From Klebsiella phage iPHaGe-KPN-11i: a DNA stretch of 64,000 nucleotides. Under the pieces are notes generated by a model. It saw only the letters and a list, made by a program, of their open reading frames with translations. It made no database searches and had not been told where the DNA came from. The stretch is taken from sequence record OR637327.1; one strand, written 5' to 3'. Positions 4,056 to 60,386 of this stretch are shown here, piece by piece. The stretch's first letter is position 1; every line of letters begins with the position of its first letter. A program made the position numbers and the translations under genes.

Positions 4056-4130
4056 AAAAGCCCTTGCGTTCGCGTGAGGGCTTTGTTATATTACACATAT
4101 CGAAACGGAACAGCCAAAAGGAACGAGAAC
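4056..4130 (+). promoter_or_regulatory. PeSL-like cassette: terminator hairpin + promoter + conserved leader (ATCGAAACGGAACAGCCAAAAGGAAC)
   Basis: aaaagcccttgcgttcgcgtgagggctttgttatattacacatatcgaaacggaacagccaaaaggaac; matches copies at 13640-13722(-), 33883-33965(-), 59876-59948 and 60305-60386. Confidence 0.55.
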
Positions 4131-4346
4131 ATGAAAGCTAAAATGATGAAGTTCGTAAAAGACTGGAGAAAAGGCGCGACAATCGGTGAGAGCTACGTAA
4201 TCGTAGACATCGAAAGCAACCTGCTCGAAGGTGCGAACGTTTTAGAAGTTCCTCGTTACGGTATGGTTGAAGCCGCTGATAAAGCAAAAGAACTGAATGG
4301 TTACGTTCTCCACATCATCGAAGCAATCGAGAAGGAATTAGCATGA
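4131..4346 (+). CDS. hypothetical protein (71 aa)
   Basis: ATG 4131 with AAGGAAC SD inside the conserved leader; in-frame part of ORF 4074..4346. Confidence 0.5.
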   Translation: MKAKMMKFVKDWRKGATIGESYVIVDIESNLLEGANVLEVPRYGMVEAADKAKELNGYVLHIIEAIEKELA

Positions 4347-4573
4347 ACAGCGTTTATCTGATTGAAGAAACCATTATCCAGCCAAACGGCGGAGTGTATG
4401 AAAAGAATATCGTGTGTGCTGCCCTGGATGAACAAGAGGCAAATCACAAAGTGAAATATTTAAATGAAAATGCTGTTGTATGTCAGACGTATTCCGGTTA
4501 TAGTGTTGCATATGCTTGGAAAGCGGTTAGTTTAGAAACCCAACCATCTTGGTTAATCAACCTGAAAAAATAA
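4343..4573 (+). CDS. hypothetical protein
   Basis: 76 aa; ATGA overlap with the upstream gene. Confidence 0.45.
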   Translation: MNSVYLIEETIIQPNGGVYEKNIVCAALDEQEANHKVKYLNENAVVCQTYSGYSVAYAWKAVSLETQPSWLINLKK

Positions 4574-4583
4574 GGGGCTTATC

Positions 4584-5081
4584 ATGAAAATGAATTACGT
4601 TCGCGGCGGTATCATGGCACTGTTACTGAAAGGTGTTTCTCGTAGTGAGAATCGTATGGGTATGGGGCCGATGGGTAAAGTCTGGTCTGTCTATATTGGC
4701 GGTGACTGTATCGGTTACATCGGCAATGATGGATTGAGCCGCGTTTACCTGGCTATCTCAAGCGGAGGCCGTGAAGTCGAATGTAGTAATTTCATGCAAG
4801 CACTTGCGCAGTTCATTGATACTGCGATTACTCAGATTGAAAAACAGGGTTGTATCGAACGTCGTTACGCGAACAAGATCGGGATGATTGAATATTCCAA
4901 CTTCTGCTTCGAAGTCGAAGAAGTGCGTTATGATACGATGGATGAAGTATACGAATATGTGCTTCGTGGTGAGGAAGTGATTAAGTCCTATAACGGGACG
5001 AAGGTTGTCAATAACCGCTCTTTCATCACTCCGTTCGAATTGCGATATCAACAGCTAATGGGCTGGATCGTGATGGAATAA
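4584..5081 (+). CDS. hypothetical protein
   Basis: 165 aa; SD aaggggcttatcATG. Confidence 0.5.
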   Translation: MKMNYVRGGIMALLLKGVSRSENRMGMGPMGKVWSVYIGGDCIGYIGNDGLSRVYLAISSGGREVECSNFMQALAQFIDTAITQIEKQGCIERRYANKIGMIEYSNFCFEVEEVRYDTMDEVYEYVLRGEEVIKSYNGTKVVNNRSFITPFELRYQQLMGWIVME

Positions 5082-5082
5082 G

Positions 5083-5106
5083 AAAAGCCCCTTTCGGGGC
5101 TTTTTT
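5083..5106. terminator. bidirectional rho-independent terminator between convergent genes
   Basis: aaaagcccctttcggggctttttt: GC stem flanked by A-run and T-run. Confidence 0.65.
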
Positions 5107-5107
5107 G

Positions 5108-5509
5108 TTATGAGGATGATAGCTGGAGTTTGATTCTTTCTATTTCTTCCGGTTCATCAATGATGCTGTAGTAAATCGTTACGGTGATCGCGTTCTCGTC
5201 ATACTGCGGAATCACTTCAACATCCAGATTGTAAACACGGGGTTCGTATGCGCGGATCGCGGAGACAATCGAAGTCCTTACTGCTTCCGCTGTTAGCGGG
5301 TTCATGTTCTCGAAAATCTGTTCCCCGATCTCACAACCAAAGTTGCTATCGAAAGGCCGTGTGCCTTTTTGTGTTGTTACGATACCGATCAGACTATTCT
5401 TTACCGCTGCCGCCCCTTTCGAGGCGGTTACGTCATTGTTCCAGTCTTTTGTTAAGTTGGGATCGATATCGCTATACAGTAAGCGAAGGTTAACACCCAT
5501 TTTATCCAA
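5108..5509 (-). CDS. 25: baseplate wedge subunit gp25 (GPW/gp25 family)
   Basis: LYSDIDPNLTKDWNNDV...RPFDSNFGCEI...EQIKLQL closely matches T4 gp25; 133 aa. Confidence 0.8.
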   Translation of the reverse strand: MDKMGVNLRLLYSDIDPNLTKDWNNDVTASKGAAAVKNSLIGIVTTQKGTRPFDSNFGCEIGEQIFENMNPLTAEAVRTSIVSAIRAYEPRVYNLDVEVIPQYDENAITVTIYYSIIDEPEEIERIKLQLSSS

Positions 5510-6065
5510 CCACCTTTAGAAACGCCTCTAAGCCTCTCAGTGCAACGATATGTTCGTAGCCACACGAACACCTTACCGGAATGTTTGCAACGATTGCTGG
5601 CTTATCCAGAGCGCTATTTATTGATTTAAAGACCGGATAGTCGATACTATCCAGAACGGCTTCTTTCTCTGACTCTTTACAGTCATCCCATAAGATTTGT
5701 TCACCGTCGATGACTACAAACTTAATCAGTTCGGGTAACTCTTCCTTTCCGGTGCGGTGTGGTTCGACTGAAATCTTGATCTCATTGCCGTACAGCTTTT
5801 CTTCGTATTCATCCACCATGATATGATGACGATTGAGCACAAACTTAATCAGTTCCCCGCATTCAGGGCATTTGATTTGGAGATCTACAGTCTCTTTGTT
5901 GATACTGTCGAACAGAGCCATAATGTAAACATAATCGCGCTGATGCTTGAACACATCACCTTCAATAATGAAGTTATCCGTGTCATCAAGATCGCCAATG
6001 GTTAACGGGCGATAAGTCACATTATATTTTGGGATATGTCGTGGTGTATGTTTACGCATTTGCAT
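5502..6065 (-). CDS. baseplate hub subunit, gp26-like (CxxC...CxCG zinc motif)
   Basis: Position and size relative to gene 25 and the gp51-like ORF; assignment is by synteny only. Confidence 0.4.
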   Translation of the reverse strand: MQMRKHTPRHIPKYNVTYRPLTIGDLDDTDNFIIEGDVFKHQRDYVYIMALFDSINKETVDLQIKCPECGELIKFVLNRHHIMVDEYEEKLYGNEIKISVEPHRTGKEELPELIKFVVIDGEQILWDDCKESEKEAVLDSIDYPVFKSINSALDKPAIVANIPVRCSCGYEHIVALRGLEAFLKVVG

Positions 6066-6795: not shown

Positions 6796-6802
6796 TTTAA
6801 CC

Positions 6803-6824
6803 TCAAAAGGGGCTTTCGCCCCTT
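6803..6824 (-). terminator. hairpin + T-run between gp54 and the gp51-like gene
   Basis: Minus strand reads aaggggcgaaagcccctttt. Confidence 0.5.
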
Positions 6825-7686: not shown

Positions 7687-7695
7687 TGTTCCCCC

Positions 7696-8781: not shown

Positions 8782-8792
8782 TTAAATTTCCT

Positions 8793-13128: not shown

Positions 13129-13304
13129 TTCAGGTCACCGATAATTTCCATCGCGGCTTCGATGTTTTCAACACCACCAAAGGTATTCCAACTTACTTCA
13201 AGGAGTTTGATACCAGGAAGATAAACCCCAACCAGCGCACCGATAGCATCGTGGATAGCGTAGTTGCCGTTTTGAAGTTGATTTGCAGTGTGCATAACTT
13301 TCAT
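13125..13304 (-). CDS. hypothetical protein (59 aa)
   Basis: ATG at 13304 preceded by GGAG and the conserved leader variant CATCGAAACGAAAGGAG. Confidence 0.4.
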   Translation of the reverse strand: MKVMHTANQLQNGNYAIHDAIGALVGVYLPGIKLLEVSWNTFGGVENIEAAMEIIGDLK

Positions 13305-13365
13305 GATGTTTCTCCTTTCGTTTCGATGTAGGTAATGTACCACTACATTACCCAGAACACAAGCA

Positions 13366-13638
13366 TTATTTTTCGATTTCGTAGCACTCTTCAACTTCGA
13401 TGTTTACCAGAGGTACTTCGATATCCCATGAATCCGCTTGTGCATCGTATACGGCTTTGTCTTCGTCGTTCAGAGGCAGACAAGTAACCCAACCGTCAGT
13501 AACGCGCATCACGCGCATTTTAGAAAGGCTTTCGAGTGCGTCCGCTGGCAGTTTTTCACCACCGTTACCCAGTTGTGCCAAACGGTCTTCATTTACCAGA
13601 ACGATTACTTTGCCTTCGAGTTCTTTAGTGATTTGCAT
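13366..13638 (-). CDS. hypothetical acidic protein
   Basis: 90 aa; directly downstream of a PeSL-like promoter/leader. Confidence 0.5.
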   Translation of the reverse strand: MQITKELEGKVIVLVNEDRLAQLGNGGEKLPADALESLSKMRVMRVTDGWVTCLPLNDEDKAVYDAQADSWDIEVPLVNIEVEECYEIEK

Positions 13639-13639
13639 G

Positions 13640-13722
13640 GGATGTTCCTTTTGTCTGTTTCGTTTCGATGTGTGTAATATACAAAAAGCCCCTCACATAT
13701 GCAAGGGGCTTCTTTAGCAAAA
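13640..13722 (-). promoter_or_regulatory. PeSL-like cassette (MotA-box-like TTGCTAAAG, hairpin, TATATT -10, conserved leader ACACATCGAAACGAAACAGACAAAAGGAAC)
   Basis: Minus strand is nearly identical to 59900-59945(+) and shares its upstream half with 60305-60330(+). Confidence 0.6.
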
Positions 13723-13730
13723 AGTGCTAT

Positions 13731-15254
13731 TTAAAACAGATCAGCGAAGATAACGTGAATGTCATCCGGTTCGGTCTTATCGCGTCGAATCTTCTTGATG
13801 ATTGGCAGGAAGAAACTGAACTCAGGTTCGCCCTTCTTACGCGTTTTCGATTTCTGGAGTCCGTCAACTTCCATTTCGACGATAGCGCCGATATAGTCAT
13901 CTTTGTTCGCCATAATGTATTCGCGATCCAGTTCACCACGTTCTTCTAACGGGATGTACACGCGGTTAATACCGTCTTCATCGTATCGGTAATCCGTATC
14001 AGTCAGACCGGAACCTGTGTTTGTTCTGGCTTCTCCTGATAAGTCCTCAACCACGAACCCGCCAACCTTATGAGGTTCTTTGGTGTGTTCGTACACGTCA
14101 ATGATTCGCAGTTCGATCGGTGTTTTGTTCTTCAACTTCACCTGATCCGCAACGCGTGAATCCTTCCATTTGAAATCAACGTTTTTCAGGATTGAACCCT
14201 CTTTACCGTCATTGCGGTAATTGTTGTAATCCTTTTTCGCTTCCGCATAGTTCTGCACCAGGATAGAAGGGATCAGCTTAACCGATGTTACACCAGAGCC
14301 AGCCAGCGCACCTTCCAGGATGCTAAAGCGATCGCAATATGGTTGAACACTCGGAGCATCACCATAGTACACTTCATACGGTACGATATCCCAGACAACA
14401 TAAACGATATTGCGCTGTTCTTCGTCGCTGATAGTGCCTTTCAGGGATTTGTTTACAATCCCGTTGCCCTCTTCGCGTTTCGCTTCCGCTTGTGTCTCGT
14501 TCTCGGTAGCTTCCCGCCTAACATCTGCCACAAGGTCAGAAACAGAATCGTCGTCATCGCCCATAAACCCAGCAAGACTAAATGGAACGCTGTTTGAAGG
14601 AACGACAGCAGTTTTTTCAGCAGGGACATAAATCAGTTCTCCATCAAGTACAACATCATAACCCAGATATTCACGAATCTTTTTCAGATCCTTGTCCAGA
14701 TTCACCAAACCTTCATACTCATTCCCCGCGCGGGATGCTTTGCGGATCTGATTCTCTAACAGATCGGACATACAACGCGCACCATCGGCTTTAAGCTGCG
14801 AGTAAGCAGGGAAGCGAATACGTTTTAAGGCTTTCTCGCTAAACGGCGTAGCGAGGCATTGAGGCTGTTCTGGAATGAGTTTCTTCCATACGCGGTTCGG
14901 TAACGTTGTACCAGCACCACATTCCAGATCGCGGTTAATGATACGGCGAAGCACTTCGCGATCATTCTCATTCACCGATGATACGATATCCAGCAGACGA
15001 TCACGGGCTGCATTGCCCGTATATTTTCGCGTTGCCAAATCAGACATCAAATCCGCGATAGCATTCGATAGCGGGGTTGTGCCTGGCTTGCCGTCCACCT
15101 GCGGGAACTTCTTAATGTGAAACATAATCTGTTTCGTGTACGTAATGCGGAAAATCTCTTTTAGCAGATCATTACCTGCATTACGTTTCAGGATCGCTTC
15201 CTTCTCTGAAATTTTCAGAGTCGAAGCGAGTTCATTTAGAATCTGTAAGATCAT
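13731..15254 (-). CDS. 30: ATP-dependent DNA ligase gp30
   Basis: MILQILNELAS..., KADGARC adenylation motif, LIPEQPQ and LPIIKKIRRDKT all collinear with T4 ligase. Confidence 0.9.
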   Translation of the reverse strand: MILQILNELASTLKISEKEAILKRNAGNDLLKEIFRITYTKQIMFHIKKFPQVDGKPGTTPLSNAIADLMSDLATRKYTGNAARDRLLDIVSSVNENDREVLRRIINRDLECGAGTTLPNRVWKKLIPEQPQCLATPFSEKALKRIRFPAYSQLKADGARCMSDLLENQIRKASRAGNEYEGLVNLDKDLKKIREYLGYDVVLDGELIYVPAEKTAVVPSNSVPFSLAGFMGDDDDSVSDLVADVRREATENETQAEAKREEGNGIVNKSLKGTISDEEQRNIVYVVWDIVPYEVYYGDAPSVQPYCDRFSILEGALAGSGVTSVKLIPSILVQNYAEAKKDYNNYRNDGKEGSILKNVDFKWKDSRVADQVKLKNKTPIELRIIDVYEHTKEPHKVGGFVVEDLSGEARTNTGSGLTDTDYRYDEDGINRVYIPLEERGELDREYIMANKDDYIGAIVEMEVDGLQKSKTRKKGEPEFSFFLPIIKKIRRDKTEPDDIHVIFADLF

Positions 15255-18685: not shown

Positions 18686-18781
18686 AATGTCATCCTCAAA
18701 GTTAAGTTGTATTGCCTACGTGGTTAAAGATACAAGAAAGCCGGATTCAGTGCAAGCATTATTTTGCATAAAAACGAAAAA

Positions 18782-18806
18782 AGCCGCCACCTTTCGGCAA
18801 CGGCTT
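18782..18806 (-). terminator. rho-independent terminator (minus strand)
   Basis: Minus strand reads gccgttgccgaaaggtggcggctttttt. Confidence 0.55.
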
Positions 18807-18811
18807 CATTT

Positions 18812-20640: not shown

Positions 20641-20716
20641 TGGAGCAGGTGAAGGGACTCGAACCCTCAACAATCTGGATGGAAACCAGATATTCTACCA
20701 ATTGAACTACACCTGC
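20641..20716 (-). tRNA. tRNA-Gly (anticodon UCC)
   Basis: Minus strand GCAGGTGTAGTTCAATTGGTAGAATATCTGGTTTCCATCCAGATTGTTGAGGGTTCGAGTCCCTTCACCTGCTCCA folds as a cloverleaf: 7-bp acceptor stem, anticodon loop TTTCCAT, TTCGAGT T-loop, CCA end. Confidence 0.8.
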
Positions 20717-20721
20717 GTATT

Positions 20722-20798
20722 TGGTGGCCCCTGCTGGATTCGAACCAGCAACCGCGCGATTATGAGTCACCCGCTCTAACCAATTAAGCTAAAGGGCC
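20722..20798 (-). tRNA. tRNA with CAU anticodon (Met, or Ile2 if lysidine-modified as in T4 tRNA-Ile)
   Basis: Minus strand GGCCCTTTAGCTTAATTGGTTAGAGCGGGTGACTCATAATCGCGCGGTTGCTGGTTCGAATCCAGCAGGGGCCACCA has anticodon loop CTCATAA, T-arm GCTGG/TTCGAAT/CCAGC and a CCA end. Confidence 0.75.
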
Positions 20799-25347: not shown

Positions 25348-25711
25348 AGTGCTGTTTGTTCCATTCAGGATTGATTTTTCGGATCATGTTTATTTCAAAA
25401 TCATGATATGTGTCTTCATCGTGTGTTGTCACGATAAGATTTACACGCTTACGTTTTTTGATTGCCATTTCCAGACGTGCGGTTTTCAAAATGTTACTGG
25501 GGTTTGCTTCCCGCCAGTATTTCGAATTGCGGTATGTGTCTAACCGCTTCCACATGTCTTTTGCTTTACCAACATACACTATAACATTGTCGATTTCAAT
25601 ACAATAAACGCAATTTCTCAACTCACCACACTTAACGAAACTGCGGTCTATTCGACCGCATTTGTCAAGAGACATTTTATAAACTTTCGTTGTAGTATTC
25701 ACCATGAACAA
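25289..25711 (-). CDS. denA: endonuclease II (denA), GIY-YIG nuclease
   Basis: NCVYCIEIDNVIVYVGKAKDMWKRLDTYRN and INPEWNKQH parallel T4 EndoII (NVIYAIAINDELVYIGKTKNLRKRINYYRT; FNPPWNIQHKK). Confidence 0.7.
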   Translation of the reverse strand: MFMVNTTTKVYKMSLDKCGRIDRSFVKCGELRNCVYCIEIDNVIVYVGKAKDMWKRLDTYRNSKYWREANPSNILKTARLEMAIKKRKRVNLIVTTHDEDTYHDFEINMIRKINPEWNKQHYDKDNQKSENLIQPVDETV

Positions 25712-25733
25712 CCTGTGCTTTCATTTTATGACC

Positions 25734-26909
25734 TTACGCGTATTTTTGTCGCCATTTTGCATAGGCTTCGTCGCTGATCTCAGTGTTGAGGTTGCCAACC
25801 AGGTAAGAACTAACTTCAACTTCCTGCGGGGCTACCTGTACGTTGTCAGACTTCAACCATTTGTTCATCCACGGATACGGGTTTGGCGTTGGTTTAAACG
25901 GAGACTGCAAGCCAACCGCGCGCATACGCTGATCCGTCAGGTGTTCGATATATGCGATCGTACTTTTCAGGGATACGCCGTCTACATCACCGATAGAGAA
26001 CAAATGTTCAGCCCATTCTTTTTCCTGTTCGTATACTTCCAGGAAAATCTTTGTCGCTTCCTCTTCGTACTGGTAAGCGATTTCCGCCATTTCTGGATCG
26101 TCTTTACCCATCTGCCAGAGTCGGATCTTGCTTTGAGTGCCTTTCTGGTGAAGTGCTTCATCACGGGCAATCAGGCGCATGATCTTCGCGTTACCTTCCA
26201 TCTTGCCTTGTTCGGCAAAGTTGAACGTGAAGGTAAACGACACGTAGAAGCGGATCGCTTCCAGAGCGTTGACAGCGTGCATACACAGGTACAGAGCAAC
26301 CTTACATTTACGCATTTGCTCTTTGCGTTTCTTCTCGTACTCTGCGATCGATTCGTCTGGGTATCCGTGGGACGTTAACATTTCGATTTTGAGCACAATG
26401 TTTTTCAGTTCGTGACACTCTGCGATCAGATCATCGTAGTATTTTGTCATGGAAGCCGAACGTTTCATGATCGCTTCGTTGCGCAGAATCTTATCGAACT
26501 CTTTAGACGGATCGATGTGTAGGTTACGCTGAATGTGCGTATAGCTGCGGCTATGGATTGTTTCACTGAACGCCCATGTTTCGATCCACGTTTCCATAGA
26601 GACATCGGAAGCGATAGGGAGGAACGCCAGGTTCGGGCCGCGCCCCTGAATGGTATCCAGCAGGGTTTGATATTGCAGGTTCGAATCGAAAATGATTTTT
26701 TCGTGATCCGGCATTTTCGCGTACTGCATACGGTCGATCGATAAGTCAATTTCTTCTGGACGCCAGAAGAATGACAGTTGTTTTTCAGTCAGTGTTTCGA
26801 ATACACGGTGTTTCTGTTCTTCGTATCGTGCTACGCCCGTATCCTCACCGAAGAACATAGGCTGTTCTAAGTGTTTGTGATCTGGGTTTGTGTTCATTAC
26901 AGTTAACAT
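25734..26909 (-). CDS. nrdB: ribonucleotide reductase small subunit NrdB
   Basis: Diiron/tyrosyl-radical RNR beta family; 391 aa, uninterrupted (no intron). Confidence 0.9.
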   Translation of the reverse strand: MLTVMNTNPDHKHLEQPMFFGEDTGVARYEEQKHRVFETLTEKQLSFFWRPEEIDLSIDRMQYAKMPDHEKIIFDSNLQYQTLLDTIQGRGPNLAFLPIASDVSMETWIETWAFSETIHSRSYTHIQRNLHIDPSKEFDKILRNEAIMKRSASMTKYYDDLIAECHELKNIVLKIEMLTSHGYPDESIAEYEKKRKEQMRKCKVALYLCMHAVNALEAIRFYVSFTFTFNFAEQGKMEGNAKIMRLIARDEALHQKGTQSKIRLWQMGKDDPEMAEIAYQYEEEATKIFLEVYEQEKEWAEHLFSIGDVDGVSLKSTIAYIEHLTDQRMRAVGLQSPFKPTPNPYPWMNKWLKSDNVQVAPQEVEVSSYLVGNLNTEISDEAYAKWRQKYA

Positions 26910-31208: not shown

Positions 31209-32984
31209 TTAGTATTTCAAGCGCCAAAGAGCTATTGCTTCATCAACTGCTTTTTTAATTTCTTCCGGCGTGTCTTTGCGTCCGGCTTTAACCAGGGCAG
31301 AGAGCATAGAACGAATGGTTGCATTCATCTGTGACTTCTCACGATCCATCTGTGCCTGATGCGCCTTATCAACCGCTGGGGCTTCTTTCTTCGCTGCCTG
31401 TGGTTTCGTAGGCTGTGCGCCTAACTCGTCCTTAGCTTGCGTTTCAGTGCGTTTCTGTTCGGCTTCTTTCTTCACATGAGGTGCGGAGAATTTACCAGCC
31501 TTGAAGTTATCACGCATACCTTCCAGGATCTTACGGGCTGTGTACCAGTCAGCAACACCACGAAGTTGTTTCAGGGTATCAACCAGCAAACCGATACTTG
31601 CGCCTTTGCTATCCTCGTCAATGTCGATATCTTTCAACCATTCAACATGTTTCTGACCGGAGTGCATGAAATCAAAGCTGCTGAAACTCCAGAAACCTTT
31701 GCGGTTGCTGATCTCGCGTTTGAAGTGGAAAGTCAAACCCGCGCCGTTATCAAACTCACCGTAGTTACTGCGGAATGTTGCCCCTGCTTGTTTCAGTGCG
31801 TTGAAATAGTCATCTTTATTGATGCGGTTAACGGTGCGTTTTGGTTTCTCTTCCGGCGCTGGTGCTGCTGCTTGCTGTGCGGTACGTTTAACAAAAGATG
31901 CTGAACGATGCCCCGCTGCAAACTCTGCGTTCATCCGGTCGATTACCGCTGCGATGCCGCTTGCGTCTGGTTTCACTTTCTGCATTTCTTTGAAAGTGTC
32001 GATGATCATATCCAGACATGCACCGTCTTCATCTTCCAGCATAGTACCTTTCAGACGTTCAGCAGGTTTGAATTTGTTCACAGTTGGGTCAACAACATAC
32101 TGGAACACATACGCGCCTTTACGCATGAATACGTGACGGTAGAAGTGAACTTTATAGTGTCCAACATCAACAATAACATCGTTACCGCTAACCTTCGCAC
32201 CCAGGATACGGGCAAAGGATGTCATGTAGTCCGCGCGTTTGAACTTGAGATCCTTCTTAGTCGGGCTAAAGATGGATTCCAGTTTCTTAGTAGGGAACAG
32301 GCTTTCCGGCGTGATTTTGTCTGGGTTCTTGCCCCATTGGTAATCACGGCTTGCCATTTTGTGTTTCTTCGTACCAACCAGAACCAGAGTATTAACTGAT
32401 ACGTTACCCAGTGCGGACGCGTCCGGCGCTGCTAAACCTTGACCGTTCGGCGGTTGACAAGAGAAAGAGAAGTCAAAGAACGCATCACCAGAGGTGAAAC
32501 GATATGTCGCGTGAACAGTATGACCGCGAACTTCGCTGATTGACTGAGTATAGGTTGTTGGTTGTCCGGTGAATTTCGTGAAGTATTCCGCGAACTCTTG
32601 CGCGTTGAATTTCGTGCTGAAATAGTTTTTCGCAACCACGAAATACGCTGCAAATTTTTCTTCCCATGCTTTTTTGTTTGCTGCGTGTTCTGCGCGAACA
32701 TCACTGTAAGTTTTACCAGCGCTGTTTGTTTTGGTTACAACGTCATACGCCTGGTTGATTTTCTGCATGAGTTCAGTGCTACCACCACGGTCGGGGTGAT
32801 TGCGCAGAGAAGCACGTTTAAAGAGCTTTGACAGTTCAGCTTTAGATTCGTCGCCAGTAGCGCCCAAAATCTTCAATGCTTCGCTGTGTGACATTTGTTC
32901 GTTAATCATTTTCCGTTCCTCAAAATAAAAGCCCATGTAACTCAGTACACGGGCAACTTTAAGGTATTTATGTTTTGCTGTCAA
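31209..32984 (-). CDS. J-domain (DnaJ-like) protein with large uncharacterised C-terminal region
   Basis: N-terminal EALKILGATGDESKAELSKLFKRASLRNHPDRGGSTELMQKINQAYDVV is a canonical J domain with the HPD motif; about 500 further residues have no recognisable domain. Confidence 0.75.
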   Translation of the reverse strand: MTAKHKYLKVARVLSYMGFYFEERKMINEQMSHSEALKILGATGDESKAELSKLFKRASLRNHPDRGGSTELMQKINQAYDVVTKTNSAGKTYSDVRAEHAANKKAWEEKFAAYFVVAKNYFSTKFNAQEFAEYFTKFTGQPTTYTQSISEVRGHTVHATYRFTSGDAFFDFSFSCQPPNGQGLAAPDASALGNVSVNTLVLVGTKKHKMASRDYQWGKNPDKITPESLFPTKKLESIFSPTKKDLKFKRADYMTSFARILGAKVSGNDVIVDVGHYKVHFYRHVFMRKGAYVFQYVVDPTVNKFKPAERLKGTMLEDEDGACLDMIIDTFKEMQKVKPDASGIAAVIDRMNAEFAAGHRSASFVKRTAQQAAAPAPEEKPKRTVNRINKDDYFNALKQAGATFRSNYGEFDNGAGLTFHFKREISNRKGFWSFSSFDFMHSGQKHVEWLKDIDIDEDSKGASIGLLVDTLKQLRGVADWYTARKILEGMRDNFKAGKFSAPHVKKEAEQKRTETQAKDELGAQPTKPQAAKKEAPAVDKAHQAQMDREKSQMNATIRSMLSALVKAGRKDTPEEIKKAVDEAIALWRLKY

Positions 32985-33005
32985 TAGATTTTTTCGAAAG
33001 ATAAG

Positions 33006-33025
33006 AAAAAGCCCCCGAAGGGGCT
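33006..33025 (-). terminator. rho-independent terminator (minus strand)
   Basis: Minus strand reads agccccttcgggggctttttc. Confidence 0.55.
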
Positions 33026-33063
33026 TTAGTTATGAATTTTCTTCCACTGATTCTGTTGCGCAA

Positions 33064-33882
33064 CTACTTTTTGAAAGTTTTTGTGATGAACATGATGGTG
33101 CTTAAATGTTCAGGTGCTACGGTTTCAGTGTATCCATCTTTCATCTGGGTTTTGGATACATAACCAGTTTTACCAGATAATTGTTTCTTGATCTCTTTCT
33201 CGATCTCTAAAGGAATATTACCATCTTCGAAATGAAATTCTTCAAACAATTCATGAGTAAAACGAGATTTATTAATCTGTCGTTTCATTCGAAATTCTAC
33301 AGTGTTATTAGTGATCCCGAACTTGATCGCGTAAAGAGCACTATTTTTAAATAATTTCTGAACATAGAAATTACCTGGTTTATTTGGACGATAGCCATAC
33401 ACACAACAATCACAACAACGAGTTCCACTATTAACAAAATTATTATATGACATAGAATTGTTATGTCCTTTTGGACAAGTAAAACTAAATTTAGATTCAA
33501 TTCCATTATAACCATCATCAAATTTTATATTGGTATAGTCAGGTGCAACTTTTTTGATATTATCAACTGCTTGTTTTTCTGTATGTCTGCGATTTGCTAC
33601 ACATTTTTTACACCGCTGACCATAGTTAAAAAACTTAAAATAACTCATGAAATGGCTATGTCCTTTTGGACAAATGAAGTTAAATTTAGTGTGATTGCCT
33701 TTCCAGGGTAATATCCATCCATTAAATATAAACCCTTCTTTTTTACATAAATACAACAAATTTTCTTCAAAGAAAGAAGGATGTTTTGCTGCCCCGCGTT
33801 TTACGAAAGGAATATCTTTAGCCATTACCAGTTTTACAGAATCTTCACAATTACCGCACATCACATTCATCCTTTTGTCCAA
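33064..33882 (-). CDS. Cys-rich zinc-ribbon repeat protein with GIY-YIG-like C-terminal segment (possible mobile nuclease)
   Basis: Repeated CPKGH-x-MSY...C..C units; GNFYV...YAIKFGIT resembles a GIY-YIG core; locally AT-rich; PeSL-like promoter immediately upstream. Confidence 0.45.
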   Translation of the reverse strand: MDKRMNVMCGNCEDSVKLVMAKDIPFVKRGAAKHPSFFEENLLYLCKKEGFIFNGWILPWKGNHTKFNFICPKGHSHFMSYFKFFNYGQRCKKCVANRRHTEKQAVDNIKKVAPDYTNIKFDDGYNGIESKFSFTCPKGHNNSMSYNNFVNSGTRCCDCCVYGYRPNKPGNFYVQKLFKNSALYAIKFGITNNTVEFRMKRQINKSRFTHELFEEFHFEDGNIPLEIEKEIKKQLSGKTGYVSKTQMKDGYTETVAPEHLSTIMFITKTFKK

Positions 33883-33965
33883 TTCGTTTCGATGTGTGTA
33901 ATATACAAAAACCCCTCACATAATGCAAGGGGTTTTTGAAAAATTTAATCAACTGGCGAAAATTT
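33883..33965 (-). promoter_or_regulatory. PeSL-like cassette (TTGATT -35, hairpin, TATATT, leader ACACATCGAAACGAATTGGACAAAAGGA)
   Basis: Minus strand is nearly identical to the cassettes at 13640-13722 and 59876-59948. Confidence 0.55.
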
Positions 33966-34146
33966 CTTCGAGAAACCAGACAGTAGATTTGTTGTTTTTT
34001 ACTCGCGTAAGCTCTAACTGATTGTCTTTAAAGGCTTCTTCGACATCAACCATAGTAACAACGTGCTTTTCGTTGGTGATGTGATTATGAAGATAGTAAC
34101 GCCGGATTTCCGGCGTTGTCAGTAAGGTAAATTCGCGTTCTAGCAT
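33949..34146 (-). CDS. hypothetical protein
   Basis: 65 aa downstream of gene 46. Confidence 0.35.
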   Translation of the reverse strand: MLEREFTLLTTPEIRRYYLHNHITNEKHVVTMVDVEEAFKDNQLELTRVKNNKSTVWFLEEIFAS

Positions 34147-35831
34147 TTTCGGATCTCCATCTTCGAGAAGCGCCCCAATTTAGCCATGACGATATGACGA
34201 TCGAAATCACCAGGGTCTAAATCGTTGTGGCTAATCACCATGATATTACCATCAATACCATTCAGAACAGCCCCTACAGCAAACGCACCTTCCTTATCGA
34301 GAGCGTTATCAAAAACTTCGTCCAGAATCAGCAGAGACAGATCCACGCCTGATACTTTACTTGTCACGTCACGCCATGTGAACAGAATAGACAAGTTGAT
34401 GCGAGCGCGTTCGCCTTGACTGAATGACGCATAACTGAAATCATCGCGCCCCAGTGATTTGATCGATTCGTTGAACTCGTCATCTAAAGTGAACTGATAA
34501 TCCGCACCCAACAGATCCAGATAATATGCTATCTGTTTGTTGAAGTACGGAATATAGCGCTTAACAATGCTGGCCTTAACGCCGGAATCTTTCAACATAT
34601 CAGTAACAATACCACGAATGTATTTTTCCTTGACGTAGCCTTGTCGTTTTTCGTTCAGTTCTGCTTCCTGCTGTTGCAACTGCTTCACGGGTTCTTCATC
34701 AATGACTACTTCCGCGCTTGCCTGTTCCATGATCGCCTGTGCTCGTTTAGCGTTGGCAACTTCGTTTTGCAGTGTACCTTTCAGGGCTTCATATTTGGTT
34801 TTCAGGGCATTGAGTGCGCGTTGCTGTTGAAGCAAGTCATTCATGATCCCTTGTAACTCGTCTTGTTTGGTTTTGATCAGGGTTAAACGCTGTGTACCCG
34901 CTTTGATGTTCTCTGCGATCTCCGCCATACGCTCAGGAGTGGGTTTAATCGCTTGCTTACAGGCCGGACACTCACCGCCTTTCTGATACATCACCTCCAG
35001 CTTTTTAAACTGTTCTACAGTCATTGAAAGCCGCGAATAACCATCACGGAGTTTGTTGATATCTTCCGTCCGGTCTTCTCCAGCGATCACCGATTCCGCA
35101 ATCTCCGCTTGCAACTGCATAAGCTGTGCTTTGATGTTCTTTGCGGTTTCTACGTGACTATCGTAGATCTCTTTGTATCGGGCGTTGTTCTGGTTCGCTT
35201 TCGCTCGCTGTTCGTCAATGAAGCGCTGATGTGTTGCGATCTGCTGCTGGATGTGATTACCCTGCATTGAGAGCGTATCCAACTGCTGATTAACACCGCG
35301 AATGTATGACTTGTTCAGCTTATCCATTTCACTGATGACGGACAGAGACAGCAAATCTTCAACCAGTTTCCGGCGTTCTGGGGTTTTCAGTTCCATGAAT
35401 GGGGTGTAACCCGCTGTACCCAGAACGATAACCTGTTTGAAGCCCACAAGGTTGATGTTCAGCATAGATTCAAGCTGTGCCTGATAATCACCTGCTGCGG
35501 AGTCTTCCGGCAACTTCTCACCGTTCTTCCAGATCTCGAACACCTTCGGCTTTTGTCCGCGCACCACTTTGTACGAGTCTTTCCCGTATTCGATTTCCAG
35601 TTCAACCAGGCATTTCTTTTTGTTGACGCTGTTCACCAACTGCCCGACTTTTAGATCGCGGAATGACTTACCGAACAGGGCATAGGTTAACGCCTCGATC
35701 AGTGTCGATTTACCGCCACCGTTTTTCCCCGTGATCAGGGTTTTCTTTGCTGTATCAAATTCCAGTTCGATCGGGGTATTCCCGACCGACAGAATATTTT
35801 GATACTTAATTTTTTTGAAGTTTAGTTTCAT
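34140..35831 (-). CDS. 46: recombination endonuclease subunit gp46 (SbcC/Rad50-like ATPase)
   Basis: Walker A TGKNGGGKSTLIEAL, long coiled coil with central CPACKQ zinc hook, C-terminal signature/Walker B (LLILDEVFD). Confidence 0.85.
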   Translation of the reverse strand: MKLNFKKIKYQNILSVGNTPIELEFDTAKKTLITGKNGGGKSTLIEALTYALFGKSFRDLKVGQLVNSVNKKKCLVELEIEYGKDSYKVVRGQKPKVFEIWKNGEKLPEDSAAGDYQAQLESMLNINLVGFKQVIVLGTAGYTPFMELKTPERRKLVEDLLSLSVISEMDKLNKSYIRGVNQQLDTLSMQGNHIQQQIATHQRFIDEQRAKANQNNARYKEIYDSHVETAKNIKAQLMQLQAEIAESVIAGEDRTEDINKLRDGYSRLSMTVEQFKKLEVMYQKGGECPACKQAIKPTPERMAEIAENIKAGTQRLTLIKTKQDELQGIMNDLLQQQRALNALKTKYEALKGTLQNEVANAKRAQAIMEQASAEVVIDEEPVKQLQQQEAELNEKRQGYVKEKYIRGIVTDMLKDSGVKASIVKRYIPYFNKQIAYYLDLLGADYQFTLDDEFNESIKSLGRDDFSYASFSQGERARINLSILFTWRDVTSKVSGVDLSLLILDEVFDNALDKEGAFAVGAVLNGIDGNIMVISHNDLDPGDFDRHIVMAKLGRFSKMEIRKC

Positions 35832-44287: not shown

Positions 44288-44656
44288 ATGAACATGCTCG
44301 AAATTAAACTGTCCAGCGATGACAGTTTCCTGAAAATTCGCGAAACGCTGACCCGCATCGGGATCGCAAATAACAAAAAGAAAATGTTGTGGCAGTCTTG
44401 CCACATCCTACAGAAACAAGGGCGTTATTTTATCGTACACTTCAAAGAACTGTTGAAGCTGGACGGTCGCCAGGTTGACATGACCGAAGATGACGAACTG
44501 CGCCGCAATAACATTGCGCGACTTCTGGAAGAGTGGGGTATGGTTTCCATCCTTACGCCGGATCTGAAATTCTCCGAAGAGAACAACTTCCGCGTACTGA
44601 CTCACGCACAAAAAGCTGAATGGACTTTGAAATACAAGTACCGGATCGGTCATTAA
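44288..44656 (+). CDS. regA: translational repressor RegA
   Basis: KIRETLTRIGIANNKKKMLWQSCHILQKQGRYFIVHFKELLKLDGRQVDMTEDDELRRNNIA is nearly identical to T4 RegA. Confidence 0.85.
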   Translation: MNMLEIKLSSDDSFLKIRETLTRIGIANNKKKMLWQSCHILQKQGRYFIVHFKELLKLDGRQVDMTEDDELRRNNIARLLEEWGMVSILTPDLKFSEENNFRVLTHAQKAEWTLKYKYRIGH

Positions 44657-44657: not shown

Positions 44658-44724
44658 CAAAAGCCCTTGCAGAAATGCAGGGGCTTTGTTATATTGGTTG
44701 TACACCACTTGTGAGGACTAAATT
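44658..44724 (+). promoter_or_regulatory. hairpin + TTGTTATATT promoter-like cassette
   Basis: aaaagcccttgcagaaatgcaggggctttgttatattggttg shares hairpin and TTGTTATATT with the cassettes at 4056 and 58589. Confidence 0.45.
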
Positions 44725-45042
44725 ATGAAAATTCGTATTGAAGAAATCATCAAAGCTATTGAATCCGGCGATCACTTGATCAACCGTCTGCATAGCGAAG
44801 ACATCAAACTGTCTCTTACTTGCAATCTCTCTGATCTGCGCACCTACGCATACGCGCGGGATCACTTCCCTAAGTTCTATACTCGCATCATGGAAGAATA
44901 TACCGTGCTAGTTGAACAACTAAATCGGCCTGACACCCAACGCTATCACAAATTAGCGCAACGCTCGCTTGATCTGACCAAGCTGGCTGGGGTATCATTC
45001 CTGTCACGATTAAACACGGAGAAAGAAAACCGTAATGAATGA
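44725..45042 (+). CDS. hypothetical protein inserted between regA and gene 43
   Basis: 105-aa ORF; its stop overlaps the gene 43 start (ATGAATGA). Confidence 0.5.
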   Translation: MKIRIEEIIKAIESGDHLINRLHSEDIKLSLTCNLSDLRTYAYARDHFPKFYTRIMEEYTVLVEQLNRPDTQRYHKLAQRSLDLTKLAGVSFLSRLNTEKENRNE

Positions 45043-52775: not shown

Positions 52776-53270
52776 ATGAGCGATCAATTAATCAAAAACA
52801 TGGATTTAACCTACAGTGTGCGAATGATTCGCCTACTGAAAAAACCCTGGACTGAATGGACGGCTTACAAGCTGGGGATCATCGACGGTCAAGGCGAAGT
52901 AATCAAGAACCCGAAGACGAAGGAAGAACTGGAAGCATATTCCCCGTTCCATCGCTCTGTAAGGCACATCAAGCGCCGTTTAAACGCGGTTCCTTATATG
53001 TCTGGGTTCATGAACCTTACGAGCGCGTATGACTCGCTACGGAACCGCTGGAACCTGACCGAGCAAGAGCACGAAGAAATCATGATGAACCTCCCAGAAC
53101 TTCGCGAAAGACTCAACGAAGAAATGGTTGCAGGTGATTCAGGCGGAAGTGTAGATAACATTGCTTCGGGTGTGACTACAGGCGCGATCACGAACAAAGG
53201 GCCGAAGGTTCTGGGTTCTACGCGTCCATATAAACGCAAACGGAAGATCATGAAAAATGATACGGAATGA
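52776..53270 (+). CDS. hypothetical protein
   Basis: 164 aa with basic C-terminal tail. Confidence 0.5.
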   Translation: MSDQLIKNMDLTYSVRMIRLLKKPWTEWTAYKLGIIDGQGEVIKNPKTKEELEAYSPFHRSVRHIKRRLNAVPYMSGFMNLTSAYDSLRNRWNLTEQEHEEIMMNLPELRERLNEEMVAGDSGGSVDNIASGVTTGAITNKGPKVLGSTRPYKRKRKIMKNDTE

Positions 53271-53414
53271 CCTTGAGCGGTTGCCTATTCGCGAAATCGA
53301 AAAGCGGATCGAGAACATGAAAGGCATTTTAGAAAAATATCCGTATATGCAGGGCATTGTCGTTTATATTGAACGGCTACGCGCTGCAAGGGCATCCAAG
53401 ATAGGAAGGAAGAA

Positions 53415-53636
53415 ATGAAACCATTACCGCCATTGAATTATCGGATCTGGGTTACTGCGAACAATTACACCTGGTTTCCGATCCGTATCAAGTACATGAG
53501 CGACACAGCGATCGTGTACACGAACGAAAGAAAATTTGCGCCGCGTGTCGATATTCCTAGACCTTATCCGTTTGATAAGATATTCTGTGAATGGAAAATC
53601 ACTTTAGACGGCACAGAGAAAGAAGTTAGCCGATAG
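53415..53636 (+). CDS. hypothetical protein
   Basis: 73 aa. Confidence 0.4.
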   Translation: MKPLPPLNYRIWVTANNYTWFPIRIKYMSDTAIVYTNERKFAPRVDIPRPYPFDKIFCEWKITLDGTEKEVSR

Positions 53637-53644
53637 AGGTAAAC

Positions 53645-54670: not shown

Positions 54671-54677
54671 GATTGAT

Positions 54678-57005: not shown

Positions 57006-57031
57006 GGGGCGTTGCCCCTTTTGAGGTTATT

Positions 57032-58585: not shown

Positions 58586-58588
58586 TAA

Positions 58589-58653
58589 AAAGCCCTTGCA
58601 TTCGTGCAGGGGCTTTGTTATTTTGTAGGGACTGAAACAAAAGAGGATAAAAC
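58589..58653 (+). promoter_or_regulatory. hairpin + promoter-like cassette (TTGTTATTTT)
   Basis: aaaagcccttgcattcgtgcaggggctttgttattttgtag; same hairpin family as 4056 and 44658. Confidence 0.45.
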
Positions 58654-58797
58654 ATGTTTGGTGATTTGAAAGAAGGTTTGAACATTTTAATTGGATTCGC
58701 GATCATTGGTGTGATTGCTTGTGTGTCCGGCGCGGTGTGGTTGTCTTATCAGGCGATCGTGTGGTTGGGCGAATGGCTTCACATTCTGGCACAGTAA
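58654..58797 (+). CDS. small membrane peptide (47 aa)
   Basis: ATG with AAGAGGA SD; single TM helix; ORF is below the track threshold. Confidence 0.3.
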   Translation: MFGDLKEGLNILIGFAIIGVIACVSGAVWLSYQAIVWLGEWLHILAQ

Positions 58798-58806
58798 GGG
58801 GATATT

Positions 58807-59016
58807 ATGCGTTTATGTTTAGTTGGTGTAGGTTTCGGTCGTGCGTTAACTCAAGGGTTAATCGACTCAATCCGCTGGATTCAACCAAGCGTTGAACTGT
58901 ACGCAATGCCGAACCGGATCGAATACTCTGATCCGACACCGTACAAAATGAAACCGTATCAAGCGCCACGCGTTAACCGTGTGCTACACCGTCAATCTGT
59001 AAACAGGGGTAAGTGA
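58807..59016 (+). CDS. hypothetical protein
   Basis: 69 aa. Confidence 0.4.
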   Translation: MRLCLVGVGFGRALTQGLIDSIRWIQPSVELYAMPNRIEYSDPTPYKMKPYQAPRVNRVLHRQSVNRGK

Positions 59017-59321
59017 TGAAAGAGCTTACGATCGTCGCAGCAGTTCTGATTTTCATCATAGTTTCAATGATTATCGTCAGACTGTACCAGCACGGGGAAG
59101 CGTTTGAATGGTTCCTGGATCACGACAAAGCGTTTCGAAAGCATTTCGCTGGTGAGTTCATCTTTACTCATGTAAGCGTAGCAAGCGGTACGGTAACGTT
59201 TGATTTTGACGGGAAATGGAAATCATACCATGTTGAACTCTCCCTTATGGATGCTAAACGCGTGTATGATGCCACACAAAACGGCGGTATGCGAAAGATG
59301 CTTATACCACTGGCAAAATAA
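59013..59321 (+). CDS. N-terminally membrane-anchored hypothetical protein
   Basis: 102 aa, TM helix at residues 4-24. Confidence 0.45.
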   Translation: MMKELTIVAAVLIFIIVSMIIVRLYQHGEAFEWFLDHDKAFRKHFAGEFIFTHVSVASGTVTFDFDGKWKSYHVELSLMDAKRVYDATQNGGMRKMLIPLAK

Positions 59322-59388
59322 TTTTAATAGCCTCTTGCAATGCAAGAGGCTTTTTTGTATATTGCGCACATACCAAAAGGAGGCAACT

Positions 59389-59874
59389 ATGACACGTATT
59401 AACACAATCGATCCTTCTCTTCTGCTGAACGAACACCTGATCGCAGAACTGCGCGAACTCCCTCGCATCCCCAATGCCGTTTTATCCGGTAAGGCAAAAA
59501 TCAACCTGTCAAAAATCCCTGCTGTGTATACGCTGGGAACCGGACACGTAACCTTCTTTTACAATAAGCTGGGATACCTTCGCGATCGTCATGTTGCATT
59601 ACGTGCTGAATACCTCACGCGTAACGGTAAAGAATACATGGACGGTGCATACGAAGATTTCGATCTTAGTCCGCTGTCAAACTCCCTGTTTCATCGTCAT
59701 TTGTGCGCGGACTGGCAACCAACGCCGGAATCAGTGAAAATCAATGTTGAGCGTATCCGTGAACGTTTCGAACTGCGCAAACGTGCTTATCGGTTCGGTA
59801 CTGAGATCATCAACGACGAAGCGGCATGGGATACGTATTACGAAAAATTAAAAGAAAAATACGATTTTCTTTGA
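59389..59874 (+). CDS. denV: endonuclease V (pyrimidine-dimer DNA glycosylase DenV)
   Basis: MTRINTIDPSLLLNEHLIAELRELPRI...LGTGHVTFFYNKLGYLRDRH matches T4 DenV ([27 protein letters not shown]...[20 protein letters not shown]); AGGAGG SD. Confidence 0.85.
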   Translation: MTRINTIDPSLLLNEHLIAELRELPRIPNAVLSGKAKINLSKIPAVYTLGTGHVTFFYNKLGYLRDRHVALRAEYLTRNGKEYMDGAYEDFDLSPLSNSLFHRHLCADWQPTPESVKINVERIRERFELRKRAYRFGTEIINDEAAWDTYYEKLKEKYDFL

Positions 59875-59875
59875 T

Positions 59876-59948
59876 TTGGGTATTGACCCAAATTTCGATA
59901 TGCAGTATATTACACACATCGAAACGAAACAGACAAAAGGAACGCATC
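59876..59948 (+). promoter_or_regulatory. PeSL-like early promoter cassette (TTGACC-16-TATATT) with conserved leader ACACATCGAAACGAAACAGACAAAAGGAACG
   Basis: Sigma70-type hexamers; the leader is reverse-complement identical to 13640-13680 and matches 33883-33920. Confidence 0.65.
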
Positions 59949-60110
59949 ATGAAAAACTTAGAAGCCAAAGTAGTTAAAGTCCTGGTTAAGAACGGTTTCA
60001 ACGAAAACGACGCGGTAGCAATGGTTGAAAAGAATCTGAATGATGCGTTGAAAGTTAGACCAGAAGCAAAACCTGCTAAACTCGCAGAGGTGATTGTATG
60101 CATCATGTAA
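59949..60110 (+). CDS. hypothetical protein (53 aa)
   Basis: ATG 59949 immediately after the conserved leader/SD. Confidence 0.4.
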   Translation: MKNLEAKVVKVLVKNGFNENDAVAMVEKNLNDALKVRPEAKPAKLAEVIVCIM

Positions 60111-60301
60111 AAGTAAGCATCAAGGATATCACGGTGGGTGACACCGTGATCCACGAAGGGAAAATGAAGACTGTCGGGAAAAACGATATCAAGCACGACC
60201 CTTTGTTTGGTGTTCTCCTGTTCGGTGATAGTTTCAACTTGGGGAGAACTTTTATTGACCGGGTTATTTTCCCGAAATGGTATCAAGGGAAACGGGTTTA
60301 A
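60098..60301 (+). CDS. hypothetical protein
   Basis: 67 aa. Confidence 0.4.
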   Translation: MHHVKVSIKDITVGDTVIHEGKMKTVGKNDIKHDPLFGVLLFGDSFNLGRTFIDRVIFPKWYQGKRV

Positions 60302-60304
60302 CAA

Positions 60305-60386
60305 ATAGCACTTTTTGCTAAAGACTTCACGGGATAGCTTTGATATAGTTATCCCATCGAAACGAAACAGACTTTAGGAGATTGCC
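60305..60386 (+). promoter_or_regulatory. PeSL-like cassette (AGCACTTTTTGCTAAAGA MotA-box-like, leader CCATCGAAACGAAACAGAC)
   Basis: The upstream half is identical to the minus-strand copy at 13700-13722; the leader carries the conserved ATCGAAACGAAACAGAC box. Confidence 0.55.

Follow-up and report, generated by a model that had tools for sequence, protein, structure and literature searches.

Promoter-early stem-loops (PeSLs) of T4-type phages are repeated intergenic composites built of a stop codon, an AT-rich stretch, a sigma70-like promoter (-35, 17 nt, -10) and a Shine-Dalgarno (SD) sequence with ATG, with a stem-loop whose register relative to the promoter is one of five (PMC2839356; PMC4122927). 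They cluster ahead of ORFans in hyperplastic regions and are linked to indels between close relatives, and the crossovers mapped for mini-circles lie between the -10 and the SD or ATG (PMC2839356; PMC4122927). For accessory-gene gain and loss in large virulent phages few concrete mechanisms have been proposed, and PeSLs are among them. PeSL-like sequences in the region of the RB43 g43 locus were mentioned by Arbiol et al., with data not shown (PMC2839356). Here we analyse a 64,000-nt stretch, the window, of Klebsiella phage iPHaGe-KPN-11i (OR637327.1), in which nine intergenic sites have this kind of organization and six of them also carry a conserved short sequence, the box, directly behind the promoter. 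One of the nine, at 44658, corresponds to the RB43 g43 locus.

Classification of its closest relatives makes the window part of a T4-like phage of the Straboviridae, genus Pseudotevenvirus, RB43/leB group. Window segments are 99-99.9% identical to ~178-kb Cronobacter, Enterobacter and Klebsiella myoviruses, for example vB_CsaM_SemperBestia (MW021756), ENT3 and iPHaGe-KPN-12i, and SemperBestia served as the complete relative for genome-wide comparison. The window covers the early and replication half of the genome. Phages of the RB43 group lack motA and alt, and RB43 has no middle-promoter consensus (Nolan et al. 2006); no search for motA was made in the present genome.

An initial annotation, made from the window sequence alone, had listed the nine sites as mobile terminator-promoter-leader cassettes, and all are present where it placed them (Table 1). 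They exceed chance: the 17-nt box ATCGAAACGAAACAGAC has 5 matches with ≤3 mismatches in the window against 0.33 expected, and at least 5 were reached in 0 of 100 shuffles. Repeat finding connects the sites in overlapping groups (families D2-D4, D6, I1-I5, I13 and I14), and the hairpins at 44660, 58589, 59329 and 4057 came out top or next to top in an independent terminator-pattern scan. The nine-way alignment gives the consensus ...AAAAAnCCCTTGCAT...GGGGnTTTGGTATATTACACACATCGAAACGAAACAGACAAAAGGA...ATG. The proposed mosaicism is also borne out, as 13711-13732 is identical to 60303-60324 (22/22 nt) and 13632-13682 matches 59905-59955 over 51 nt at 90%.

Each element fills the gap from the upstream gene's stop codon up to the SD-ATG (63-97 nt), and the upstream box, AAATAGCAC..., provides or overlaps that stop codon. 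The promoter pattern TTGnnn-N17-TAnnnT occurs at eight sites, and the site at 60305 has an extended -10, TGATATAGT. RNA folds predict a stem-loop at all nine, although the initial annotation's shared aaaagccc...ggggcttt hairpin holds at only six (4056, 13640, 33883, 44658, 58589 and 59324); the stem-loops at 13305 and 60305 lie across the -10, and that at 59876 lies across the -35 TTGACC. At the six, an A-tract/GC-stem/T-tract hairpin of 10-14 pairs (-16 to -21 kcal/mol) resembles an intrinsic terminator and encloses the -35. TTGC(A/G) in the 5' arm of these stems is invariant and stands exactly 17 nt ahead of TATATT or TATTTT, and the -35 hexamer is therefore embedded in the terminator. The leader box, described as near-identical throughout, is present at 4056, 13305, 13640, 33883, 59876 and 60305, and other leaders occupy 44658, 58589 and 59324. 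The downstream genes were said to be small ORFs (open reading frames) of unknown function. This applies to 7 of the 9 as far as small size or unknown function goes, but the ORF at 59389 is denV, that at 33861 is a 265-amino-acid ORF with a CapR homology domain, and that at 60387 encodes DUF7717. The nine downstream proteins are mutually unrelated, which speaks against paralogous downstream genes having brought their own 5' ends along; most have no Pfam match, these three being the exceptions.

Judged at the level of sequence, the nine sites display every feature by which PeSLs are defined (Arbiol 2010; Comeau 2014). The PeSLs of RB49/phi1, PST/T4 and nt-1/KVP40 have the same layout from stop codon to SD-ATG with the stem-loop in variable register. 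PeSLs of T4-type phages likewise occur in many copies in early hyperplastic regions, for the most part ahead of ORFans, and the same indels and replacements, with crossovers between the -10 and the ATG, are seen there between close relatives. The PeSL-like interpretation of the initial annotation thus stands in architecture, in multiplicity, in early and hyperplastic location and in the presence of joints inside cassettes. In SemperBestia ~14 promoter cassettes of the hairpin-embedded kind occur. Every one lies in an early or hyperplastic region, and the late module (100-134 kb) has no true cassette; six further exact or near-exact copies of the box each precede a hypothetical ORF. Copy number is lower than in RB49, with ~14-20 cassettes per genome here against ~50 PeSLs. 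The forms differ as well. In the dominant form in the window the -35 (TTGCn) is buried in the 5' arm of an A-tract/GC-stem/T-tract terminator, whereas the nt-1 PeSL stem is A3-4G3...C3T3-4 and RB49 PeSLs are polyG/polyC. Moreover, the window repeat includes a sequence-specific initial transcribed box and a palindromic upstream box that are shared with non-T4 families and are absent from the descriptions in the PeSL papers.

The core of the box is the 14-mer CATCGAAACGAAAC, extended as CATCGAAACGAAAC(AGAC), and in every copy in the window and in SemperBestia it starts 5 nt past the end of the -10, which puts the predicted +1 at the A of CAT. The bare 14-mer was harvested from IMG/VR in an unbiased way (all figures cover the matches listed), and TAnnnT stands at exactly that offset in 76 of 115 distinct contexts, with 0-10 at every other offset. 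After clustering by upstream sequence, the hexamer stands at the offset in 30 of 59 clusters against ~1 expected, and TTGnnn at 16-18 nt is also found in 16 of those 30. The distance from the box to the ATG is variable (12-34 nt in other phages, or there is no ORF), and at 13305 the box runs directly into GGAG. We read the box as the initial transcribed sequence and mRNA 5' end, not as a free-standing operator in an untranslated region (UTR). The leaders, from +1 to ATG, are predicted to be structure-free, with minimum free energies of 0 to -0.8 kcal/mol, and are rich in A (48% A and 11% T; the window has 28% of each).

Conservation is centred on the same stretch. In five orthologous loci downstream of DNA ligase (86-99% ligase identity), all 27 nt from CATCG to AAAAGGAAC are invariant. 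Variation is seen in the -10, the discriminator, the upstream box and the hairpin loops, the last with compensating changes in the stem. These loci were harvested via the ligase protein, so the sample is unbiased for the cassette.

Strong promoters of other phages begin similarly. T7 A1, T7 A3 and lambda PL share the register of the cassettes, with a -10, 5-6 nt and C-A(+1)-T. In T7 A1 (gccATCGAGAGG; GATACT-tacagc-C-A(+1)TCGAGAGG) and T7 A3 (cacATGAAACGACAG; TACGAT-gtacca-C-A(+1)TGAAACGACAG) the +1 is annotated at the A in the record. For lambda PL (GATACT-gagca-C-ATCAGC) the start is not annotated in the record and the A is record position 35582, which we take to be the published PL start. 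Their transcripts start ATCGAG (T7 A1), ATGAAACGACAG (T7 A3) and ATCAGC (PL), and the window box starts ATCGAAACGAAACAG; the box shares CATCGA with T7 A1 and GAAACGA..CAG with T7 A3. Purine-rich, U-poor, unstructured starts fit productive strong promoters and open leaders, as in T7 A1 and N25-type promoters. T7 A1, T7 A3 and PL are single sites with no dispersed repeat family and no fused terminators, and their resemblance to the box spans 5-13 nt; any common function of the start sequence would be hypothetical.

Genome comparison had been proposed to find differences in gene content at cassette borders, and joints between relatives do lie inside cassettes. In leB, the region of site 60305 consists of a cassette A, ORFs gp014 and gp013, a cassette B and the DUF7717 gene, and its counterpart in the window is a single chimera, with a left part from A and a right part from B. 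Both ends of the 425-bp difference lie inside CATCGAAAC|GAAAC in the box. The leB-like arrangement also occurs in RB43 and three IMG/VR genomes, and the window state is therefore most simply read as a deletion between two box copies. A second joint precedes the M(K/E)NLEAKVV ORF (window 59949). In the window and RB43, denV and the TTGACC stem-loop promoter lie upstream; in three other genomes a different gene, the upstream box and a terminator hairpin precede this ORF and the same box, and homology picks up again at the -10 TATATT. Downstream of DNA ligase the cassette is kept in five genomes, and CfP1 has a different ORF behind it, with divergence beginning directly past AAAAGGAAC. Cassette 4 and its ORF (window 32998-33961) are absent from SemperBestia. 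As these joints show, the same 14-30 nt, because they are repeated at many cassettes, provide the patches of homology at which ORFs and promoter modules are deleted, inserted or swapped by recombination.

Copies also occur outside the T4-like phages. A 39-nt probe consisting of the -10 plus the box matches 230 phage records at 801 places, and because of this the concern that the box merely reflects local duplication of one segment is excluded. T4-like matches include Pseudotevenvirus, Slopekvirus (KP15, where the site is annotated 'promoter'), Pantoea phage Phynn and Yersinia phage JC221. Certrevirus POP15 has a TAA, a hairpin with TTGACT, TATTCT, 5 nt and then 27/27 nt of the box and SD. The Drexlerviridae phage ESCO41 has AAATAGCACTAATTGCTAAAG, a hairpin, TATATT, 5 nt and then CATCGAAACGAAACACACCAAAGGAAA. 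Its downstream gene, gp25, is a conserved T1-family gene that T4-like phages do not share, so it is the cassette, not the gene behind it, that is common to unrelated phages. We rejected the idea that cassette and ORF travel together between families, since ESCO41 gp25 belongs to the T1 family and the DUF7717 ORF of the window to the T4 family.

T1-like promoter units (ESCO41, T1 and IMG/VR contigs) have the same layout as cassette 60305, and 13640 shares their upstream box. They differ from the cassettes in preceding conserved family genes, in recurring every 0.5-1 kb and in usually lacking a separate GC terminator that carries the -35. In T1-like contigs the upstream box ATAGCAC-N4-TTG(C/T)TAAA occurs 6-7 times per 4-8 kb, its TTGCTA is always 22 nt, not 17, ahead of the -10, with a stem-loop lying across the latter. 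A normal -35 would not be placed like this, and we found no published description of such a Drexlerviridae promoter unit. The leaders, 5 nt past the -10, are A/C-rich and start CA(T/C), with the box as the commonest version; T1 itself has the upstream box and another leader.

The box is also found in lambdoid phages and prophages, including HK225 (at 31.5 kb) and examples from Enterobacter, Citrobacter and Rahnella. At these PL-type loci, very diverse operators and promoters (~55 IMG/VR contexts, among the matches listed) are followed by the box from the same position. Behind it comes a conserved structured leader of ~60-250 nt (ATCGACAGCTGAGCGAAGTTAGCCAGCGGCG...) with no ORF, which has no match in Rfam and may be a put-like or antitermination RNA; in Rahnella-type copies boxA/boxB-like sequences follow instead. 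In a cyanophage-like contig, whose best matches are T4-like Synechococcus phages, ccctgTAGACT-N5-CATCGAAACGAAAC-GACCC-ATG occurs several times before small ORFs, with no SD. Two further contigs share this layout and are grouped with it by layout alone. S-PM2 was rejected as a named cyanophage carrier, as its homologous 4.3-kb region has no box within 3 mismatches.

A scan of 185,579 bacterial species genomes for a -10 plus box gave 117 stretches against ~69 calculated by chance, and those showing additional promoter features resemble prophages or phage contigs in assemblies. A host origin of the box was rejected, as none of 5,426 E. coli genomes has a match to the 39-nt probe. Two bacterial records, NZ_JBHSCL010000010.1 (178,077 bp, 'Flagellimonas marina') and NZ_VSMK01000220.1 (46.7 kb, 'Nitratidesulfovibrio liaohensis'), carry cassettes that are identical to 59876/60305 or of T1 type. 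By their size, both look like complete phage genomes contaminating bacterial assemblies.

So, what are these cassettes for? The architecture, the distribution of copies, the recombination joints and the locking of the box to the -10 are legible in the aligned genomes, and on these grounds we consider the nine sites probably to be PeSL-type cassettes in which the box is a portable early initial transcribed sequence and at the same time recombination homology. Early in infection, the cassettes would most likely make host RNA polymerase terminate and restart, each as a compact unit. The stem-loop, which is a full intrinsic terminator in six cases, would stop or attenuate upstream transcription, a host sigma70 promoter (of the extended -10 type at 60305) would restart it early in infection, and a short 5' leader would lead into the SD at its end. 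The box would supply a purine-rich, A-rich and structure-free start that fixes the start site and favours escape from strong promoters, and it would leave an open leader for ribosome loading on any ORF that follows.

Several points weigh against this proposal. Promoter and terminator activity, the start site, and the effects of the cassettes on escape and translation are all predicted, and the supposed benefit of the box for promoter escape is borrowed by analogy from T7 A1 and N25-type purine-rich starts. Three of the nine cassettes lack the box, which is therefore not required for a cassette. Exact conservation of the box could stem from repeated recombination (concerted evolution or horizontal spread) as much as from selection. 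The upstream palindromic box (TAGCA-N5-TGCTA), 22 nt before the -10 in T1-like phages, is unexplained by the model. Finally, only one of the four larger indels between the window and SemperBestia is at a cassette, the others being a difference in tRNA copy number at 20.5-20.8 kb and indels at 25651-25738 and 53260-53409. The cassettes are one route of plasticity among several.

A bolder reading goes further than the terminate-and-restart model. The 14-nt box occurs in T4-like, T1-like, rV5-like, lambdoid and cyanophage-like contexts, and CATCGAAACGAAAC, often with the palindromic ATAGCAC-N4-TTGCTAAA, is possibly, though not probably, a portable and sequence-specific early-expression signal across phage families. 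Equally tentative is the further suggestion that it has an unrecognised function at the 5' end of early transcripts or on initiating RNA polymerase, with the cassette exchanged independently of genes.

Less likely still, the box may be a functionless passenger, a homology 'linker' homogenised by recombination or gene conversion and by horizontal transfer of cassettes. A crossover maps inside the box and modules are swapped at its edges. Whole cassettes including the upstream box are shared with ESCO41 and POP15 (27/27 nt) and the downstream genes are family-specific, which fits horizontal spread. Under the module theory of Susskind and Botstein, conserved 'linker' sequences at gene borders reportedly serve modular exchange in lambdoid phages. 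Those linkers are likewise short conserved intergenic homologies for recombination between unrelated modules; unlike them, the linker in the window is a complete regulatory unit with joints readable base by base. A passenger would not account for a 14-mer at a fixed 5-nt offset from differing -10s and with unrelated -35s or operators in ~30 independent clusters (among the matches listed). Nor would it explain why the CAT(C)G.. and GAAACGA start recurs in strong promoters mapped by experiment (T7 A1/A3, lambda PL), or why even T1-like leaders without the exact box have an A/C-rich composition that sets in at the same position.

The initial annotation had favoured a post-transcriptional role, in which the box is a 5' UTR operator (a site of RegB-like cleavage or for a RegA-type repressor) that co-regulates early ORFs. 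We now consider this distinctly unlikely. It is true that the box would be transcribed and lies upstream of the SDs, that RegA is encoded at window 44288-44653 (Pfam Translat_reg, E = 1e-53), and that GGAG occurs within the SD itself at two cassettes (59324 and 60305). However, tblastn with T4 RegB turned up no homologue in either the window or SemperBestia (best E = 0.99), and SemperBestia gp146 (31802-32449, -), annotated 'putative endoribonuclease', matches an SLT transglycosylase domain and not a ribonuclease family. The box contains no GGAG, and RegB target sites were rejected on both counts. Known RegA sites are AU-rich, and the box is unlike them. The box-ATG distance of 12-34 nt, or the absence of an ORF, speaks against an operator; in lambdoid prophages, moreover, this box stands ahead of non-coding leaders that are structured or nut-like, and it also occurs in T1-like and rV5-like phages. 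It belongs to no Rfam family. Rfam 15 covariance models at gathering score returned only two tRNAs in the window and nothing in five box-carrying loci of other phage types. Pairing of the leader with 16S rRNA, considered also as a possible enhancer, is ordinary, the best complementary run of 7 nt being the median of shuffled leaders.

Least of all do we favour DNA-binding sites, an explanation in which the box (tandem CGAAA-CGAAA) and/or the palindrome TAGCA-N5-TGCTA would bind a host factor or a phage early-shutoff repressor, and in which, just as improbably, a protein at +1 or ~-43 would switch the whole cassette family together: the direct pentamer repeat lies exactly over the predicted start site, and the 15-bp palindrome is fixed 22-23 nt from the -10 in short-form cassettes and many T1-like promoters, a spacing unsuited to a normal -35, but no common candidate regulator is known across Straboviridae, Drexlerviridae, Vequintavirinae and lambdoids, and the terminator hairpin of long-form cassettes displaces the upstream box by ~11 nt and breaks the fixed geometry. 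We know of no host regulator whose consensus matches the box or the palindrome.

Some other known systems were set aside. For MotA middle promoters and PmSLs, we looked for a Mot box, (a/t)(a/t)(a/t)TGCTT(t/c)A, centred at -30 and 11-13 nt from the -10; the nearest look-alike, TTTGCTAAA in the upstream box, is 22-33 nt from the -10. By inspection, the spacing is wrong for a sigma54 reading of the upstream box. Transposable repeats of the MITE (miniature inverted-repeat transposable element) or REP (repetitive extragenic palindromic) kind were rejected, as all copies are co-oriented with flanking genes and sit exactly in the stop-to-ATG gap, and the alignment reveals no terminal inverted repeats or target duplications.

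PeSLs are already published, including the remark on RB43. We did not find the start-site box or the T1-type upstream box described as cross-family cassette parts in the PeSL papers, in Nolan et al. 2006 or in string searches of open-access text; the literature search covered open-access text only, so a prior description elsewhere is possible. What the window adds are PeSL-type examples at base resolution in a further genus, which includes many Klebsiella, Enterobacter and Cronobacter phages that are candidates for therapy. The homology patch is the first 14-30 transcribed nucleotides, as counted from the predicted start, and one start-site sequence 5 nt past the -10 recurs behind unrelated early promoters in several phage families. 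If functional, the box would be a compact determinant of strong early expression, via start-site choice, promoter escape or leader openness, and a marker from which early promoters and hot spots of recombination could be predicted in phage genomes. Even if it is a linker and nothing more, it is evidence that regulatory cassettes move between phage families.

Table 1. Coordinates of the nine cassettes, each named by number and by the first position of its site as used in the text, and of two related units. All positions refer to the window; aa, amino acids.
Feature	Coordinates	Strand	Stem-loop and upstream elements	-35	-10	Box or leader	SD	ATG and downstream gene
Cassette 1 (4056)	4055..4133	+	terminator hairpin 4055-4084	TTGCGT 4064-4069, in 5' arm	TATATT 4087-4092	box variant TATCGAAACGGAACAGCC 4098-4115	4117-4123	4131; 71-aa ORF, no Pfam match
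Cassette 2 (13305)	13302..13372	-	AAAATAATGC upstream stretch 13363-13372; stem-loop 13331-13353 across -10	TTGTGT 13357-13362	TACATT 13334-13339	box CATCGAAACGAAA 13316-13328, abuts SD	GGAG 13312-13315	13304; 59-aa ORF
Cassette 3 (13640), canonical full-length form	13636..13732	-	upstream box AAATAGCACTTTTTGCTAAAGA 13711-13732, overlapping DNA ligase stop codon; terminator hairpin 13683-13715	TTGCAT 13699-13704	TATATT 13676-13681	box CATCGAAACGAAACAGAC 13653-13670	13645-13651	13638; 90-aa ORF
Cassette 4 (33883)	33859..33937	-	terminator hairpin 33907-33937	TTGCAT 33923-33928	33900-33905	degenerate box CATCGAAACGAATTGGAC 33877-33894	33870-33875	33861 (probable); 265-aa low-GC ORF with CapR homology domain
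Cassette 5 (44658), box-less	44659..44727	+	terminator hairpin 44659-44687 (GAAA loop)	TTGCAG 44667-44672	TATATT 44690-44695		44713-44717	44725; cassette between regA and small ORF preceding DNA polymerase gene 43
Cassette 6 (58589), box-less	58587..58656	+	terminator hairpin 58587-58616 (TTCG loop)	TTGCAT 58596-58601	TATTTT 58619-58624		58642-58647	58654; 47-aa hydrophobic ORF
Cassette 7 (59324), box-less	59329..59391	+	palindromic terminator 59329-59351	TTGCAA 59335-59340	TATATT 59358-59363	leader GCGCACATACC	AAGGAGG 59377-59383	59389; denV
Cassette 8 (59876)	59875..59951	+	stem-loop 59875-59892 over -35	TTGACC 59883-59888	TATATT 59906-59911	box 59917-59934	59936-59942	59949; 53-aa ORF
Cassette 9 (60305), T1-phage-type architecture	60303..60389	+	upstream box 60303-60324; stem-loop 60331-60355 across -10		extended TGATATAGT 60341-60349	box 60355-60372	AGGAG 60376-60380	60387; DUF7717
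Related unit, box-less	18715..18807	-	terminator 18780-18807, then AAAATAATGC	TTGCAC, N17 to -10	TATCTT		SD-ATG	18685
Related unit	32956..33030	-	terminator 33002-33030, then promoter 32956-32984	TTGACA, N17 to -10	TAAAGT			591-aa ORF

The genes of the window include baseplate hub genes, DNA ligase, nrd, td, frd, gp46/47, gp55, rnh, gp32 and gp45, together with gp44/62, regA, gp43, uvsX, gp41, dda, dexA, denV and gp39. The list of nine sites was incomplete, as box-less related early promoter/terminator units such as 18715-18807(-) and 32956-33030(-) had been missed. An AAAATAATGCTTG -35 module is common to the former, cassette 2 and leB cassette B. The hexamers of 32956-32984 are those described for the RB43 early rki promoter (J-domain protein 057w), which is sigma70-like and whose transcript appears early in infection by northern blot. 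In the window, this TTGACA-N17-TAAAGT promoter has the 591-amino-acid ORF at 31209-32984 behind it.

The low-GC ORF of cassette 4 (33064-33882, -; 265-272 amino acids) has two CapR homology/zinc-ribbon repeats, and the region 32001-34000 has 39% GC. An internal direct repeat pairs 33431-33507 with 33626-33702. We suspect a homing-endonuclease-derived mobile gene that came with or beside its own cassette. Elsewhere in the window, two neighbouring tRNA genes occur at 20644-20798 (-), where SemperBestia has one annotated tRNA-Gly. Relative to SemperBestia, a 148-bp insertion at 53260-53409 (+) gives rise to a 53-amino-acid ORF (53257-53418) in a tightly packed operon, with neither a promoter nor a stem-loop at its borders.

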